Shown: positions 2,694-62,530 of the stretch, piece after piece
Layout: the number at the start of each line of letters is the position of its first letter
How positions within the stretch are numbered: position 1 is the stretch's first letter
Assembly: GCF_013122565.1 (NCBI RefSeq)
Contig: NZ_CP053258.1
Source: Escherichia coli
GTDB taxonomy: Bacteria; Pseudomonadota; Gammaproteobacteria; Enterobacterales; Enterobacteriaceae
Strand: one strand, 5' to 3'
Length of the DNA stretch: 64,000 bases
The notes under the pieces: model-generated
Seen by the model: the letters and a program-made list of their open reading frames with translations, nothing else
The model's database searches: none
What the model was told of the DNA's origin: nothing
Made by a program: the position numbers and the translations under genes

Positions 2694-3023
2694 ATGCTGA
2701 TCTTCGAAGGTAAAGAGATAGAAACGGATACCGAAGGCTATCTCAAAGAAAGCAGCCAGTGGAGTGAGCCGCTGGCAGTGGTGATTGCAGAGAACGAAGG
2801 GATTTCGCTGTCGCCAGAACACTGGGAAGTGGTGCGTTTCGTGCGTGATTTCTATCTGGAATTCAATACTTCTCCGGCGATTCGTATGCTGGTAAAAGCG
2901 ATGGCGAATAAATTTGGCGAAGAAAAAGGTAACAGCCGCTATTTATATCGACTGTTTCCGAAAGGTCCGGCTAAGCAAGCCACCAAAATTGCTGGCCTGC
3001 CAAAACCGGTAAAATGTATTTAA
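2694..3023 (+). CDS. tusE: Sulfur relay protein TusE (DsrC-like), 109 aa
   Basis: ORF 2637..3023 trimmed to ATG at 2694 ([12 protein letters not shown]...); C-terminal PKPVKCI. Confidence 0.9.
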
Positions 3024-9479: not shown

Positions 9480-11633
9480 ATGCTAAGTCCTTTGCTCAAA
9501 CGCTATACCTGGAACAGCGCCTGGCTGTATTACGCGCGTATTTTTATTGCGCTTTGTGGAACCACAGCGTTTCCGTGGTGGCTGGGTGATGTAAAACTGA
9601 CGATTCCGCTGACGCTGGGGATGGTGGCAGCGGCGCTGACCGATCTCGATGACCGACTGGCGGGACGTTTGCGTAACCTCATCATTACGCTGTTCTGCTT
9701 TTTTATCGCCTCGGCCTCAGTAGAATTGCTGTTTCCCTGGCCCTGGCTATTTGCGATTGGCTTAACGCTCTCTACCAGCGGCTTCATTTTGCTCGGCGGT
9801 CTGGGTCAACGCTATGCAACAATTGCCTTCGGTGCATTGCTGATCGCCATTTACACTATGTTGGGAACATCACTGTATGAGCACTGGTATCAGCAGCCGA
9901 TGTATCTGCTGGCCGGTGCCGTCTGGTACAACGTCCTGACACTTATTGGTCATCTGCTGTTCCCGGTCCGCCCGCTGCAGGACAACCTGGCGCGTTGCTA
10001 TGAACAACTGGCGCGTTATCTTGAGCTCAAGTCGCGCATGTTTGATCCTGATATTGAAGATGAAAGCCAGGCACCGCTGTACGATTTGGCTCTCGCCAAC
10101 GGTCAGCTGATGGCGACATTGAATCAGACGAAACTCTCGCTGCTGACCCGCTTACGTGGCGATCGTGGTCAACGGGGAACGCGTCGCACGCTGCATTATT
10201 ACTTTGTCGCACAGGATATTCACGAGCGTGCCAGCTCTTCTCATATTCAGTATCAAACATTGCGTGAACATTTTCGCCACAGCGACGTGCTGTTCCGTTT
10301 TCAGCGGCTGATGTCGATGCAGGGCCAGGCGTGCCAGCAACTGTCACGCTGTATTTTGCTGCGTCAGCCTTATCAACATGATCCGCATTTTGAGCGCGCT
10401 TTTACGCATATTGATGCTGCCCTGGAGCGGATGCGCGATAACGGCGCGCCTGCCGATTTACTCAAAACACTGGGATTTTTGCTGAACAATTTACGCGCCA
10501 TTGATGCCCAACTGGCAACAATTGAATCAGAACAGGCCCAGGCACTGCCCCATAATAATGACGAAAATGAGCTCGCTGATGACAGCCCGCACGGATTGAG
10601 TGATATCTGGCTGCGTCTTAGCCGTCACTTCACGCCGGAATCCGCCCTCTTCCGTCATGCGGTAAGAATGTCGCTGGTGTTGTGCTTCGGCTACGCCATC
10701 ATTCAAATAACCGGAATGCATCACGGGTATTGGATCTTGCTGACAAGTTTGTTTGTCTGCCAGCCAAACTATAACGCCACGCGCCACCGCCTGAAGTTAA
10801 GGATTATTGGTACGCTGGTAGGTATCGCCATTGGCATTCCTGTGCTGTGGTTTGTACCGTCACTGGAAGGGCAGCTGGTGCTACTGGTTATTACCGGCGT
10901 GCTCTTTTTTGCCTTCCGTAACGTGCAATATGCCCATGCAACGATGTTCATCACACTTTTGGTGCTACTGTGTTTTAACTTGCTGGGTGAAGGTTTTGAA
11001 GTAGCGTTACCTCGCGTAATCGATACGCTGATTGGTTGTGCCATTGCGTGGGCGGCAGTGAGCTACATCTGGCCTGACTGGAAGTTTCGCAATCTGCCGC
11101 GCATGCTCGAACGCGCCACAGAGGCCAACTGTCGCTATCTCGATGCCATACTGGAGCAATACCATCAGGGGCGTGATAACCGTCTGGCGTATCGTATTGC
11201 CCGCCGCGATGCACACAACCGTGATGCTGAACTGGCGTCGGTGGTATCAAATATGTCCAGCGAACCGAACGTTACCCCGCAAATTCGCGAAGCCGCGTTT
11301 CGGTTGCTGTGCCTTAACCATACGTTTACCAGCTATATCTCAGCCCTCGGTGCTCACCGGGAGCAGTTAACTAATCCTGAAATTCTGGCGTTTCTTGATG
11401 ACGCAGTTTGCTATGTTGATGACGCGTTACATCATCAACCTGCTGATGAAGAACGCGTCAATCAGGCATTAGCTGGCCTGAAACAGCGGATGCAGCAACT
11501 TGAACCACGGGCAGACAGCAAAGAACCTCTGGTCGTACAACAAGTTGGGTTATTGATTGCATTACTGCCAGAGATTGGTCGTCTGCAACGCCAGATTACT
11601 CAAGTTCCGCAGGAAACTCCTGTTTCGGCGTAA
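9480..11633 (+). CDS. yccS: Inner membrane protein YccS (FUSC-like), 717 aa
   Basis: ORF 9471..11633; start set at second ATG (MLSPLLKRYTWNSAW) per remembered 717-aa length; 9471 is an alternative. Confidence 0.85.
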   Translation: MLSPLLKRYTWNSAWLYYARIFIALCGTTAFPWWLGDVKLTIPLTLGMVAAALTDLDDRLAGRLRNLIITLFCFFIASASVELLFPWPWLFAIGLTLSTSGFILLGGLGQRYATIAFGALLIAIYTMLGTSLYEHWYQQPMYLLAGAVWYNVLTLIGHLLFPVRPLQDNLARCYEQLARYLELKSRMFDPDIEDESQAPLYDLALANGQLMATLNQTKLSLLTRLRGDRGQRGTRRTLHYYFVAQDIHERASSSHIQYQTLREHFRHSDVLFRFQRLMSMQGQACQQLSRCILLRQPYQHDPHFERAFTHIDAALERMRDNGAPADLLKTLGFLLNNLRAIDAQLATIESEQAQALPHNNDENELADDSPHGLSDIWLRLSRHFTPESALFRHAVRMSLVLCFGYAIIQITGMHHGYWILLTSLFVCQPNYNATRHRLKLRIIGTLVGIAIGIPVLWFVPSLEGQLVLLVITGVLFFAFRNVQYAHATMFITLLVLLCFNLLGEGFEVALPRVIDTLIGCAIAWAAVSYIWPDWKFRNLPRMLERATEANCRYLDAILEQYHQGRDNRLAYRIARRDAHNRDAELASVVSNMSSEPNVTPQIREAAFRLLCLNHTFTSYISALGAHREQLTNPEILAFLDDAVCYVDDALHHQPADEERVNQALAGLKQRMQQLEPRADSKEPLVVQQVGLLIALLPEIGRLQRQITQVPQETPVSA

Positions 11634-12225
11634 GAGAGTCAGCCCATTCTGCAAGCTCCTGGCGGCGTGCCACCGGGAGCGCAGCTTCATGAATACCGAT
11701 AATGGCACCTTCAAGCATAAACAGAATCTTTTCTGTCACCAGACTGTTTTGCTGCCGCAGTCGCAACCAACACATTTTTGCCCCAAGTATACGTAACGCC
11801 CGTACATCCTTAATCCCCACCTCCCCGAGAATCGCTTCCAGATGAAAAGACATATTGGGCAAATCTTTCAGTCTTTCCCGGGTATTGCGCGTGCTTTTCT
11901 CTTTCAGCGCTGCATCGAGAGAATATTTCGACAGACGCACCAGCTTCAGTTGATTTCGCCATAGACTTTCATCAACCCGATAGTAATTGAGGGTAACGGA
12001 TCGGCCACACTTTTTATATGTCAGCCAGACAGGCGGATGTTTTACACAGTACTGTGCACTTTGCTCACAAGCCCGAAGATACAACTCACCATCAGAAACC
12101 ATCGCAAACACCGTGTCGTCAACGGTCAGGCTGTAACTGCCAAACAATGATCGGTATTCAATTGTGCCCAACGTTGCCAGGTATTCTTGTGATTTATAGA
12201 TCCGCTTATAGGAGAGGCTTTTCAT
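11596..12225 (-). CDS. sxy: Competence regulator Sxy/TfoX, 209 aa
   Basis: ORF 11596..12225; MKSLSYKRIYKSQEYLATLGTIEYRSLFGSYSL; 3' end overlaps yccS by 38 nt. Confidence 0.92.
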   Translation of the reverse strand: MKSLSYKRIYKSQEYLATLGTIEYRSLFGSYSLTVDDTVFAMVSDGELYLRACEQSAQYCVKHPPVWLTYKKCGRSVTLNYYRVDESLWRNQLKLVRLSKYSLDAALKEKSTRNTRERLKDLPNMSFHLEAILGEVGIKDVRALRILGAKMCWLRLRQQNSLVTEKILFMLEGAIIGIHEAALPVARRQELAEWADSLTPKQEFPAELE

Positions 12226-25775: not shown

Positions 25776-26885
25776 GTGGCGACATTAACCCGGCTTTTTA
25801 TTCATCCTGTTAAATCGATGCGCGGCATTGGTCTTACACATGCTCTGGCAGATGTCAGTGGTCTGGCCTTTGATCGCATCTTTATGATTACGGAACCTGA
25901 TGGTACGTTTATTACCGCTCGCCAGTTTCCCCAGATGGTACGGTTTACTCCTTCACCTGTGCATGATGGCTTGCATCTCACCGCACCAGATGGCAGTAGC
26001 GCATATGTCCGTTTTGCTGATTTCGCCACACAAGACGCACCAACCGAAGTTTGGGGCACACATTTTACCGCGCGAATTGCGCCAGACGCGATCAACAAAT
26101 GGCTAAGTGGATTTCTCTCCCGCGAAGTGCAGTTGCGCTGGGTGGGGCCACAAATGACCCGGCGCGTGAAACGCCACAATACTGTACCCCTGTCATTTGC
26201 TGATGGCTATCCTTACCTTCTTGCTAACGAAGCCTCGTTACGTGATCTCCAACAACGTTGTCCGGCCAGTGTAAAAATGGAGCAATTCCGCCCCAATCTG
26301 GTGGTTTCCGGCGCGTCAGCCTGGGAAGAAGATCGCTGGAAAGTGATTCGCATTGGTGATGTGGTGTTTGATGTGGTTAAACCTTGTAGCCGCTGTATTT
26401 TCACCACCGTCAGCCCAGAAAAAGGGCAAAAACATCCGGCAGGCGAACCATTAAAAACATTGCAATCTTTCCGCACTGCCCAGGATAACGGCGATGTCGA
26501 TTTTGGTCAGAATTTAATTGCCCGTAATAGCGGCGTGATTCGCGTTGGCGATGAGGTGGAAATTCTGGCAACGGCTCCGGCAAAAATTTACGGCGCAGCT
26601 GCCGCTGATGATACCGCCAACATCACGCAACAACCGGACGCAAATGTAGATATTGACTGGCAGGGACAGGCATTTCGTGGAAATAACCAACAAGTGTTGC
26701 TGGAGCAATTAGAAAATCAGGGAATTCGTATCCCTTATTCTTGCCGCGCGGGCATTTGTGGAAGTTGCCGTGTTCAGCTTTTAGAAGGCGAAGTCACGCC
26801 GCTGAAAAAATCAGCAATGGGCGATGATGGCACCATTCTTTGCTGTAGCTGTGTACCGAAGACTGCACTTAAGTTGGCGCGTTAG
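25776..26885 (+). CDS. ycbX: MOSC-domain 2Fe-2S protein YcbX, 369 aa, GTG start
   Basis: ORF 25776..26885; C-terminal ferredoxin-like [11 protein letters not shown]; first codon GTG. Confidence 0.9.
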
Positions 26886-48856: not shown

Positions 48857-48871
48857 ACGTTAAAAACAATG

Positions 48872-48897
48872 AAGCCCGCTGAAAAGCGGGCTTTTTT
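48872..48897. terminator. Bidirectional terminator between aspC and ycbL
   Basis: Stem AAGCCCGCT / AGCGGGCTT, loop GAAA, then TTTTTT. Confidence 0.85.
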
Positions 48898-48905
48898 ATG
48901 CGCCT

Positions 48906-57581: not shown

Positions 57582-58884
57582 GCGCCTGTACCTTGGCTCC
57601 GTAATCATTAATCGGCTGCCATTTCGCTGGCAGTCCGGTGAAATCTGCTTGCGCTACGCCAAGACGTACCGCCTGATCAATAACAATGCGCGCAACGTCA
57701 AAGTGACGTGCACGCGGATACTGTGACAGATATTCGCGTACCACCAGACCAAGATCCAGCGGCACTTGTCTGGTTTTGTACACAGCAAGTTGTTCTTCGA
57801 TGATCGCCGCCAGCTGTTCGCGGATCTCGTTAAATTCTTCGTATTCCAAATCTGGCGGAAGTTCCCCAGTCACTTCTTCATCGCGCAGTGCCATCTCTTC
57901 GTCACGCATATCCAGCAGACGATCGGCATTGGCATAAGTTAGCGCCCACGGCTCATCAAAATAGGTTTGTACCGACTGACGTAACCGCTGAGCAAAGACG
58001 CGGTTTTTATCCATATCGATCGCGGTACGAATAAATTTATGTACGTGGCGGTCGTAGCCAATCCACAAATCGATGGATTGCTGGCCCCAACTGATAATAC
58101 GGTCGAGTTTGCTCTGCAGATCGAACACCAGACGATCGACAAAATGCAGATCGTCATGAGTCATCGTCGCATCCTGAATGCGCAACAGATTAGCCTGCAA
58201 TTTGTCGCCTGCCGCTTCCAGCGTATCCTGCAATTCACGCAGCGTTCCGGAAGTTTCCGAAAGCAACAATTCACAGCTGGAAATCGCCGCCCGCCAGTCT
58301 TTGTTCAGCAACTGGGCAATATCGTCCTTCACCTGCTGCTGCTGTTCGTCCATCAGACGTTGCGTCAGGTCGATACTGTCGAAAATTTCTGCTACCGAAT
58401 ATTTCAGTGGCGCATAGACATTACGGTGCCAGTGAAATTCATCACCGCCCTCTTCGGCGGCATCTGCTGCGCGTTTTAGCTCACCCGCCACAATCGACAA
58501 CTGCATAGAAAGACGCAGCGTAGAAAACTCGCGCTGACGGATGTAATAGTCAGTAATGCCGATGCCGAGCGGCGTCAGACGGTAAATTGCGTTCCCTTCC
58601 GCCTGCTCGCTGGTAAAGCGGTTCAGCAGACGTTGACGCACCATGTCGTTGATCGCGTTGTTGGCGCGCACGCCGATGGTTTCGCTGGTTTGCTCAAACG
58701 CATCACTCACATGGCGGAATGCATCCACCAGCTCGCCTTCACTCATCTCACCATCCAGACGCTCGCTGTTCAGCGTGGCAACCGCCAGCAGAAAAGAGAG
58801 TCGGTCTACCGGCAGCGAGATGGAGAAGTCATTTTTTCTGGCCCAGGCAACCAGTTCGGGGACTGTCTGGGAAAATTCACTCAT
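57562..58884 (-). CDS. mukF: Chromosome partition kleisin MukF, 440 aa
   Basis: ORF 57562..58884; [25 protein letters not shown]. Confidence 0.94.
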
Positions 58885-59666
58885 ACTTTATCCTTGCTCT
58901 GCGGTTTGCGCGCGGTGACATGAATATAACGCCCCAGGGTAATATACGGTTCCTGACGGCAATAACGCGTTTCTAATTCAAGTAATGCTTCATAGCAGTC
59001 GCGCTGCTGGTGCTTCTCGCGCAGATAATCATGAAACACACGAACGCCTGTCTTACCCATAATTTGCCAACCAGCTTCTTCCAGCCACAGATAAACCTGC
59101 GCAGGGTCGCGTGGATAATCTGGCGAAAGCGTCCGTTTTTTCTTTTTCGGCATTCCCGCCTGCACGTAATCAAAATTCCCGGCGACCATGTTATGCATCA
59201 ACAAACCATGCGCATTGTAGAACATTAACGACAACACGCCGCCTGGACGCAACACTGACCACAGGGTCTGCAATACGCTGCGGGGATCAGCCACCCACTC
59301 GAGCACCGCATGGAACAATATCAGATCAACGGGCGTTTCCAAATGCGAAGCAACATCCTGAGCGGCGCAATGTATAAATTGCATGTTGTCGCTCACACCT
59401 TTTGCTTCTGCCGCCTGTTTTGCGCGGACGATCATCTGCGCAGAAAGATCGCATAAAATAACCTGATGCCCACGCTCGGCCATTTTGATTGCAGTCTGCC
59501 CTTCTCCACCGCCCGCATCCAGCACACGCAGTTTTTGCGGGCCCATTTCCGCCAGCACGCGATCGAGATCCTGCCACAGAATAGCCTGTCGAAGCTGTCC
59601 TTTGGTGGTGCCGTAAATGTTACGGGAAAACTTTTCCGCAATATCATCAAAATTGCGATCCTGCAT
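58881..59666 (-). CDS. cmoM: tRNA mcmo5U methyltransferase CmoM (SmtA), 261 aa
   Basis: ORF 58881..59678 trimmed to [19 protein letters not shown]; SAM motif VLDAGGGEG; stop overlaps the mukF ATG. Confidence 0.9.
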
Positions 59667-59801
59667 TGCTTTCTCCACCGGTTGGCTAAGACGTTTTCTG
59701 ATAAAGACGCTATTTTGTCACAGCCACGGCGAGAATGAACCCGTCTGGTGTAATATCGCTGGCGATCCCTTGCTATATGGTCAAAAAAGGAACCAGAAAG
59801 G

Positions 59802-60581
59802 ATGCTTTTTACACTGAAAAAAGTGATCGGCGGTATGCTGCTGCCACTTCCGCTGATGTTGTTAATTATTGGCGCTGGCCTGGCGCTGCTGTGGTTTAGC
59901 CGTTTTCAAAAAACCGGGAAGATTTTTATTAGCATTGGGTGGCTGGCACTCTTGTTATTGAGTTTGCAACCGGTAGCCGACCGGCTGCTGCGTCCCATCG
60001 AAAGCACCTATCCGACATGGAATAATTCGCAAAAAGTGGACTATATCGTGGTGCTCGGAGGTGGTTATACCTGGAACCCACAGTGGGCACCGAGCTCTAA
60101 TTTAATCAATAACAGTCTGCCACGCCTGAATGAAGGTATTCGCTTATGGCGCGCAAATCCGGGATCAAAGCTGATCTTCACGGGAGGCGTAGCAAAAACC
60201 AATACGGTGAGTACAGCGGAAGTAGGTGCCAGAGTTGCGCAATCGCTGGGCGTGCCGCGCGAGCAAATTATCACCCTGGATTTGCCAAAAGATACCGAAG
60301 AAGAAGCTGCGGCAGTGAAACAGGCGATTGGTGTCGCCCCTTTCCTGCTGGTGACCTCCGCATCACATCTGCCGCGGGCGATGATCTTTTTTCAGCAGGA
60401 AGGGTTAAATCCGCTACCAGCCCCGGCGAATCAGCTGGCCATCGACTCGCCGCTTAACCCGTGGGAACGGGCAATCCCTTCTCCGGTCTGGTTAATGCAT
60501 AGCGACCGCGTTGGCTATGAAACGCTTGGTCGCATCTGGCAGTGGCTGAAAGGTTCGTCAGGCGAGCCACGGCAAGAGTGA
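59802..60581 (+). CDS. elyC: Envelope biogenesis factor ElyC (YcbC, DUF218), 259 aa
   Basis: ORF 59802..60581. Confidence 0.9.
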   Translation: MLFTLKKVIGGMLLPLPLMLLIIGAGLALLWFSRFQKTGKIFISIGWLALLLLSLQPVADRLLRPIESTYPTWNNSQKVDYIVVLGGGYTWNPQWAPSSNLINNSLPRLNEGIRLWRANPGSKLIFTGGVAKTNTVSTAEVGARVAQSLGVPREQIITLDLPKDTEEEAAAVKQAIGVAPFLLVTSASHLPRAMIFFQQEGLNPLPAPANQLAIDSPLNPWERAIPSPVWLMHSDRVGYETLGRIWQWLKGSSGEPRQE

Positions 60582-61451
60582 TTTTGATGCCAGATCGAAG
60601 TTGCGCCGACTAAATCGTCCGGTATTAACCAGTTGCGCAACTTCATCCCATAACACATACAACCAACGCCGCCAGATGAACGACTCCGCCACTGGCGCGC
60701 GTTGCAGGTAACTCCAGAGCAAATCTTCCGCCAGAGAATTATCCATTAGTCGGAACAGTTCGTATTCCCGCGGTGCCCAAAGCATTAGTCCCGGCCCGAC
60801 CATCGCCAGTAACTGATCGCTGCGCGAATCTTTCAGCATGCTGCGTAAACAGAAGTTACCGTGAATCAGCACACAATTGTCGTTAAAGCCTTCAAATAAT
60901 GCCGGGAGACATTCGCGAGTGCGGAACAGGATCCGCTTATCCTGCATCGTCAGACCGGTGTTATTGAACTGATTGAGCGTGGTCCATAGCACTTCAACAT
61001 GTTGCCGGTACCATGAGGGCCAGAAATTTTCCTGAGTATTGTCGACCGCGCCGACGCAACCGCGACTGTCCTGACGGTGCCAGGCCAGTAAGGCTTCAAC
61101 GATTTGGTCTTTGAGCTGTTCCCAGCGTTCTGGTGTTCGGGCTGGTGCTTCCACCGAAACACCACGCATCCGCTCCAGTAGCAGGACATCGGGGCCGGAG
61201 TGTTCTTCATGCGTCATCACACCATAAATAGTCGGCATACGGACAGTCCCACTTCTTGCCAGCATGGTGGTTTTCCATGCCAGCTGTCGGGCTTTTCCGG
61301 GCGTACTAAAGCTTCTTGCCATTAACGGCATTGGGTTTCCCTGGCTGTCATACAAAGCCCACAACGCCGTATCCGCTTTTTCATTGACGCACTCAATACG
61401 ACTGAGTTTTTCGCCCAGTAAATGGCTTAATTCGGCACGCAGCTGTTCCAT
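60558..61451 (-). CDS. ycbJ: Kinase-like (aminoglycoside phosphotransferase fold) protein YcbJ, 297 aa
   Basis: ORF 60558..61451; 3' end overlaps elyC by 24 nt. Confidence 0.88.
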   Translation of the reverse strand: MEQLRAELSHLLGEKLSRIECVNEKADTALWALYDSQGNPMPLMARSFSTPGKARQLAWKTTMLARSGTVRMPTIYGVMTHEEHSGPDVLLLERMRGVSVEAPARTPERWEQLKDQIVEALLAWHRQDSRGCVGAVDNTQENFWPSWYRQHVEVLWTTLNQFNNTGLTMQDKRILFRTRECLPALFEGFNDNCVLIHGNFCLRSMLKDSRSDQLLAMVGPGLMLWAPREYELFRLMDNSLAEDLLWSYLQRAPVAESFIWRRWLYVLWDEVAQLVNTGRFSRRNFDLASKSLLPWLA

Positions 61452-61604
61452 TCAGATTACCCTCATAAAAGCTACTGCTTTCATAATGAGCGCCAATATA
61501 AAAGATGTCACCTGAATGAGATCAATTGTTGAAAAGAAAAATTGAGGAAAATCGTAACGGTACGACACTCCTCCCAAAATTGTCTGGAGTGTCGTGAAGT
61601 GAAA

Positions 61605-62530
<926 letters not shown>

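Follow-up and report, generated by a model that had tools for sequence, protein, structure and literature searches.

The convergent genes elyC and ycbJ of Escherichia coli share their last 24 coding nucleotides, and this overlap is best read, at a rough probability of 80%, as a frozen by-product of spacer loss and 3' extension, accompanied by low, Rho-limited antisense transcription in both directions. A short spacer between the convergent neighbours would have been lost and the elyC reading frame extended into the last codons of ycbJ. Antisense RNA would then extend from each gene into its partner for 24 nt or more, probably for hundreds of nucleotides, and Rho, acting on the untranslated read-through RNA, would hold it low. 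This action of Rho has been shown on the ycbJ strand, and a C-rich composition hints at it on the elyC strand. The overlap probably persists because each stop codon doubles as a serine codon in the partner gene and the C-terminus of YcbJ appears to be under purifying selection; it need not be useful in itself to persist. As both genes are weakly expressed, collisions and duplex RNA would probably be minor.

The overlap is already annotated and published, evolutionarily old and of a common kind; it is therefore an ordinary one, and opens no new question. It is of use chiefly as a practical warning for single-gene deletions. The comparative results also provide a small, clean example of how a convergent overlap originates and persists: the tail of ElyC hitch-hikes on the constrained tail of YcbJ, and natural REP insertions have separated the two genes.

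Genes and geometry of the overlap

The window, a stretch of 64,000 nt from an E. coli genome (contig NZ_CP053258.1), contains the following features at the junction of the two genes.

59802..60581, + strand: elyC coding sequence, 259 amino acids, envelope biogenesis factor (open reading frame listing, NCBIfam, Pfam, RefSeq annotation at the homologous position)
60558..61451, - strand: ycbJ coding sequence, 297 amino acids, YcbJ-family phosphotransferase with an APH-like fold (open reading frame listing, NCBIfam, Pfam, RefSeq)
60558..60581, both strands: 3' coding stretch shared by elyC and ycbJ, 24 nt, codons in register
60579..60581, + strand: elyC stop codon TGA, the complement of the YcbJ serine codon TCA (residue 291)
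60558..60560, - strand: ycbJ stop codon TGA, the complement of the ElyC serine codon TCA (residue 253)

The + strand of the overlap (tca ggc gag cca cgg caa gag tga) encodes the end of ElyC, S-G-E-P-R-Q-E-stop, and the - strand (tca ctc ttg ccg tgg ctc gcc tga) encodes the end of YcbJ, S-L-L-P-W-L-A-stop, so aligned that codon position 1 of each gene lies opposite position 3 of its partner. An earlier note on this DNA, made from the sequence alone, had assigned these names, these two stop codons and this tail-to-tail arrangement of 24 nt, and open reading frame coordinates, sequence, NCBIfam and RefSeq all agree with it. ElyC matches the NCBIfam equivalog NF007794 (509.3 bits, cut-off 205) over residues 1-259 of 259, and YcbJ matches NF007890 (567.1 bits, cut-off 319) over residues 1-297 of 297. 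Both shared tails lie outside the recognized domains, since the Pfam domain DUF218 ends at ElyC residue 231 (80-231) and the Pfam domain APH (31.5 bits, cut-off 23.2) ends at YcbJ residue 249 (64-249). Thus, elyC and ycbJ are two genuine genes on opposite strands that share 3' nucleotides and are kept in relatives, as in other convergent overlapping gene pairs.

The notion of an annotation artefact, in which one of the genes would in fact end before the shared stretch, is almost certainly wrong: the search for an earlier end, which the note had named as the observation that would overturn its claim, found no upstream in-frame stop in either frame, the family models reach the last residue of both proteins, and the same stops recur in about 70 species. 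Direct support for an artefact was not found, the nearest to it being that the last residues of ElyC are poorly conserved and are dispensable in three Citrobacter species. Because each stop is the first one in its frame, whether the overlap exceeds chance expectation is not the real question.

RefSeq/PGAP annotates the identical 24-nt overlap in all three E. coli genomes inspected, among them K-12 MG1655 (ycbJ 971752-972645, + strand; elyC 972622-973401, - strand). The 1.9-kb elyC/ycbJ region was found in 5425 of 5426 complete E. coli genomes, with a best identity of 98.7%. That identity raised the question of a source outside E. coli, which was rejected: mismatches between the window and K-12 (about 1.6%) are evenly distributed, as in ordinary divergence between phylogroups.

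Conservation in the Enterobacteriaceae

A scan for ElyC with one genome per species (GTDB) gave 225 confirmed loci, the best 80 of which, all from Enterobacteriaceae, were compared. Among these best 80 of 225, ycbJ is convergent downstream of elyC in every locus, and the overlap is 24 nt in 67 species, 21 nt in eight, 36 nt in one and absent in three (all of them Citrobacter), the remaining locus being that of the Escherichia albertii type strain NBRC 107761, in which elyC has a nonsense codon. Genera with the 24-nt form include Escherichia, Salmonella, Citrobacter, Klebsiella, Raoultella, Enterobacter, Kosakonia, Leclercia, Kluyvera and Trabulsiella, and the elyC stop is invariant in 70 sequences that have it. 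In the 21-nt form, elyC stops one codon earlier, at a TAA or TAG that lies opposite a YcbJ leucine codon (TTA or CTA). In E. albertii NBRC 107761, an in-frame TAG replaces the codon for Trp-91 of ElyC (L006 2771-2773) and ycbJ is intact; judged by its reading frame, this elyC looks like a pseudogene.

The three Citrobacter species have evidently uncoupled the two genes by insertion. Each has a REP-like palindromic element of 58-117 nt immediately outside the ycbJ stop, by which the last eight residues of ElyC are replaced with x-E-H and YcbJ is left intact.

L010 3266-3358: REP-like insert, Citrobacter youngae
L017 3266-3323: REP-like insert, C. werkmanii
L023 3266-3382: REP-like insert, Citrobacter sp. 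wls619

A shorter REP motif matched the inserts of L010 and L017 and a K-12 intergenic element, but not the insert of L023, which was called REP-like by eye; a search for the REP motif within the window gave no match.

Gene arrangement in other Enterobacterales families

Other families were reached through homologues of YcbJ, by a search of representatives and a further one that started from a distant member, and the contigs so found were examined. Erwinia amylovora has a 24-nt overlap in the same register, and Serratia odorifera has one of 24 nt that is moved by one codon at both ends. In Dickeya and Sodalis ligni, elyC and ycbJ are convergent with gaps of 24 nt and 13 nt, respectively; Plesiomonas has a gap of 30 nt, with an 11-bp hairpin in the spacer across the ycbJ stop, and one low-GC lineage keeps the convergent order with a gap of 107 nt. 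In the loci with a gap or a REP insertion, ElyC stops soon after a W..LKG motif, which implies that the overlap is old, that it toggles around zero spacing, and that it corresponds to a C-terminal extension of ElyC. Outside the Enterobacteriaceae the overlap is patchy: Erwinia and Serratia have it and Dickeya and Sodalis lack it, a spread that would allow for more than one origin or loss. Against its being a by-product, selection for the overlap itself could also account for a length held strictly at 24 nt in at least 20 genera.

In several Enterobacterales families, ycbJ, which encodes a kinase-fold protein, is located directly downstream of ycaR-kdsB, and of lpxK where this is visible.

window 60558-62530: ycaR-kdsB-ycbJ linkage, found also in L084, L086, L092, L094 and L095

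A high-GC (61%) relative has the order msbA-lpxK-ycaR-kdsB-ycbJ-cmoM-mukFEB, with elyC absent between ycbJ and cmoM (L084 3904-3995). The linkage to ycaR-kdsB hints at an envelope or LPS-related role for ycbJ. One version of selection for the overlap would make it a see-saw, in which transcription of ycaR-kdsB-ycbJ, on the Kdo/LPS side, is coupled to that of elyC, a regulator of undecaprenyl-phosphate-dependent envelope polymers, so that the envelope pathways are balanced. If so, selection would act on the RNA overlap as well as on the C-terminus of YcbJ, and would explain the near-invariant 24 nt in Enterobacteriaceae, Erwinia and Serratia, but such a see-saw is considered very unlikely.

Constraint on the two C-terminal tails

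Comparison of the 67 species with a 24-nt overlap indicates which protein constrains the shared nucleotides. In the flanks, column entropy peaks at the third codon position of each gene's own frame (1.20 bits for elyC, 1.10 bits for ycbJ); within the overlap, mean column entropy is 0.65 bits at position 3 of YcbJ versus 0.40 bits at position 3 of ElyC. Changes that are synonymous in YcbJ and non-synonymous in ElyC account for 79 species-states, and the reverse for 13. Over the six shared residues, pairwise identity is 0.89 in YcbJ, with nine variants, and 0.68 in ElyC, with 27. Conservation of the 30 residues just before them is equal in the two proteins (0.86 and 0.84, respectively). The YcbJ tail LLPWLA is conserved, and the ElyC tail, G-E/K/Q-P-G/R-Q/E/K-E/Q/K/D, drifts with the synonymous changes of YcbJ. 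Since variation in the overlap follows the third codon positions of YcbJ, the last residues of ElyC are a poorly constrained extension, which the comparison predicts to be dispensable beyond the LKG motif, and the L-L-P-W-L-A end of YcbJ is, by these substitution patterns, apparently under purifying selection.

These features place elyC/ycbJ in a familiar class. For convergent overlaps, random 3' extension is an established model (Kingsford et al. 2007, cited in PMC3887535). Convergent prokaryotic pairs, which are explained by such extension as far as the next stop codon (Kingsford et al. 2007; Fukuda et al. 2003; summarized in PMC3887535), resemble elyC/ycbJ in being two genuine genes on opposite strands with short shared 3' ends, in having the length of the overlap set by a partner codon whose complement is a stop (TCA, TTA, CTA), and in showing small gaps in relatives and one weakly constrained tail. 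The elyC/ycbJ overlap differs in the unusual stability of its length (24 nt) over a wide phylogenetic range; otherwise there is no substantive difference.

Transcription termination at the junction

The earlier note had also held that no terminator intervenes between the two genes, and several lines of analysis bear this out. A consensus scan for intrinsic terminators (a G+C-rich hairpin followed by a T-tract, with a preceding A-tract if bidirectional) found none at the elyC/ycbJ junction, an Rfam search of the junction gave no match at E <= 1, local folds at the junction are about as stable as those of shuffled sequence (z -0.7 to -1.2), and the nearby hairpins are not conserved. One of these is a perfect inverted repeat that begins 16 nt past the elyC stop and is not followed by a T-tract.

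60597..60644, + strand: perfect 10-bp inverted repeat, GAAGTTGCGC / GCGCAACTTC (arms 60597-60606 / 60635-60644), with a 28-nt loop, inside ycbJ

Across 48 Enterobacteriaceae sequences, 52.7% of cells in this stem pair, with no covariation of pair or type above that of shuffles; by this alignment, the repeat is lineage-specific and not a conserved terminator. For a hairpin downstream of the ycbJ stop (approximately 60502-60533), 76% of cells pair as counted on the + strand, again with no covariation above shuffles.

An imperfect inverted repeat (60535-60547 / 60565-60577) spans the overlap and is followed by TTTT. It was rejected as a terminator: the 63-nt fold has z -1.2 to +0.9 against shuffles in six species, and the arms are accounted for by protein coding, namely the W-Q-W-L of ElyC and the L-P-W-L of YcbJ.

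A cryptic terminator within the coding sequence, formed by the 60535-60577 repeat or the 60597-60644 hairpin, might nevertheless stop or stabilize the elyC transcript and limit the RNA overlap to a few tens of nucleotides. Inverted repeats do occur at both places, TTTT follows the elyC stop, a 181-nt fold of the + strand has z = -3.7, and the 30-nt spacer of Plesiomonas holds its 11-bp hairpin. These signs are outweighed by the negative scan, the unexceptional folds around the overlap, the stem that pairs in just 53% of cells across species and lacks a T-tract, the W-L codons of both proteins that already explain the arms of the spanning repeat, and the lack of any Term-seq 3' end recorded for elyC or ycbJ in PMC7815308 (Adams et al. 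2021), all of which make a cryptic terminator highly improbable.

Even where an intrinsic terminator is absent, read-through need not be unlimited: a Rho-dependent termination region has been mapped on the sense strand of ycbJ, with a peak at K-12 972120 (PMC7815308, supplementary file 2). Reads upstream and downstream of the region number 135 and 18 in untreated cells versus 192 and 140 with bicyclomycin, with a Rho score of 5.47 (p = 5e-12) (PMC7815308).

61083, - strand: equivalent of the Rho region peak, transferred from K-12 972120; a coarse position, from 800-nt windows
60582..60740, + strand: C-rich, G-poor stretch of about 160 nt past the elyC stop, C/G 1.4-2.1 in 80-nt windows

The peak falls within ycbJ, some 525 nt short of the stop codon and thus upstream of the overlap, a position which suggests poor transcription or translation of the 3' half of the gene. 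For the elyC strand, supplementary file 2 of PMC7815308 has no Rho entry; the C-rich stretch past the elyC stop is rut-like in composition and a candidate loading region for Rho on elyC transcripts, with which it is compatible without being evidence of it. As in the Rho-mediated suppression of antisense and read-through transcription in E. coli (PMC7815308), a bicyclomycin-sensitive region is present, on the ycbJ strand, and untranslated antisense read-through RNA of the kind expected here is the usual substrate of Rho. Unlike a terminator that follows the end of a gene, the Rho peak of ycbJ lies within the gene, and none is recorded on the elyC strand.

Antisense transcription and its possible regulatory role

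With this geometry, antisense overlap of the two transcripts is obligatory whenever both genes are transcribed, as the earlier note had stated, and published RNA-seq agrees (PMC12288877, PMC7373196). In the wild-type data of Huang et al. 2020 (PMC7373196, Table S1c), sense and antisense RPM are 36.4 and 5.4 for ycbJ, 20.5 and 7.1 for elyC, 106 and 1.7 for kdsB, and 91.6 and 2.4 for smtA. By this table, ycbJ and elyC are both weakly expressed, and antisense amounts to 15% of sense for ycbJ and 35% for elyC, compared with about 2% for kdsB, smtA and mukF. The antisense fraction of elyC and ycbJ is thus about ten times that of their neighbours, which matches the prediction of mutual read-through.

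The raised antisense fraction on both genes is also what a functional convergent excludon would produce, with the kdsB-ycbJ side repressing elyC and the reverse, through collision of RNA polymerases and/or cutting of the RNA duplex by RNase III, so as to tune envelope biogenesis. Table 1 of the ExcludonFinder study (PMC12288877, NAR 2025) places ycbJ-elyC in the E. coli 'excludome', among 165 convergent transcript overlaps detected in at least 50% of 58 MG1655 RNA-seq sets, and the pairs as a class have higher synteny and lower single-cell co-expression than controls (PMC12288877); the overlap and the gene order are kept across several Enterobacterales families as well. The listing, however, follows almost automatically from overlapping coding sequences, and Rho already curbs transcription of the ycbJ strand upstream of the overlap. 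Neither sense RNA rises in the two RNase III mutants rnc-14 and rnc-38, although low expression limits sensitivity (ycbJ 36.4 RPM in the wild type versus 32.7 and 15.9; elyC 20.5 versus 11.0 and 16.7), and p19-captured duplex RNA over the pair (8-19 RPM), subject to the same limit, is no higher than over its neighbours (PMC7373196). Furthermore, the three Citrobacter species and several other lineages uncouple the genes and yet keep both. Taken with the natural uncoupling events, the RNase III data, within their limited sensitivity, weigh against a strong regulatory role.

The convergent excludons of Listeria, S. aureus and E. coli (PMC12288877) resemble elyC/ycbJ in that adjacent genes converge and have 3'-overlapping transcripts. 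Their defining outcome, mutually exclusive expression brought about by interference or RNase III, is not where the rnc and p19 data for elyC/ycbJ point, and an excludon function for this pair is considered unlikely. A separate hot spot of duplex RNA adjoins elyC: smtA (cmoM/smtA, 58881-59678) has 140-590 RPM of p19-captured duplex RNA, versus approximately 10-80 RPM for neighbours (Huang et al. 2020, Table S1b).

Consequences for deletion mutants

The overlap has a practical consequence for mutant collections. The Keio deletion design, reportedly that of Baba et al. 2006, is said to leave just 21 nt at the 3' end of a deleted gene. With 24 nt shared and 21 nt retained, a deletion of ycbJ should remove exactly the elyC stop (60579-60581), and by the same design a deletion of elyC should remove exactly the ycbJ stop (60558-60560). 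Because the two genes overlap in opposite orientations, deletion of ycbJ is reported to inactivate elyC (PMC12282094, mSystems 2025); loss of the stop codon fits this report and would explain it. The phenocopy of elyC loss by ycbJ deletion (PMC12282094) might be counted in favour of an excludon, but its simpler explanation is that the deletion design would drop the elyC stop and the cassette drive antisense transcription. Given the expected loss of the partner's stop codon, single-mutant phenotypes of ycbJ or of elyC, the latter including lysis and envelope defects at about 22 C, need complementation.

Other convergent gene pairs in the window

Mapping of the K-12 annotation onto the window identified ten convergent gene pairs, four of which have overlapping coding sequences (24, 38, 4 and 4 nt); the remaining six have gaps of 31-75 nt. 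With four of ten overlapping, the elyC/ycbJ arrangement is a common one. In addition to elyC/ycbJ, the overlaps are as follows.

11596-11633, convergent: sxy/yccS overlap, 38 nt
26882-26885, convergent: zapC/ycbX overlap, 4 nt
3020-3023, convergent: yccX/tusE overlap, 4 nt

The likeness to yccS/sxy that the earlier note had drawn is upheld by the reading frames (+ strand 9480..11633 and - strand 11596..12225, sharing 38 nt), but its description of elyC/ycbJ as the second such site was an undercount, there being four convergent coding overlaps in the window. The pairs sxy-yccS, zapC-ycbX and yccX-tusE are likewise in Table 1 of PMC12288877, so that all of these convergent coding overlaps are on the ExcludonFinder list. 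They differ from elyC/ycbJ in length and codon phase: the 4-nt pairs consist of overlapping stop codons (such as CTAA/TTAG), whereas elyC and ycbJ share sense codons.

The convergent spacer between gloC and aspC is 49 nt in the window (48857-48905) versus 221 nt in K-12 (984298-984518; L091 15299-15519). The K-12 copy holds the REP motif CTTATCAGGCCTAC, and the difference in spacer length is thus a polymorphism of REP presence or absence.
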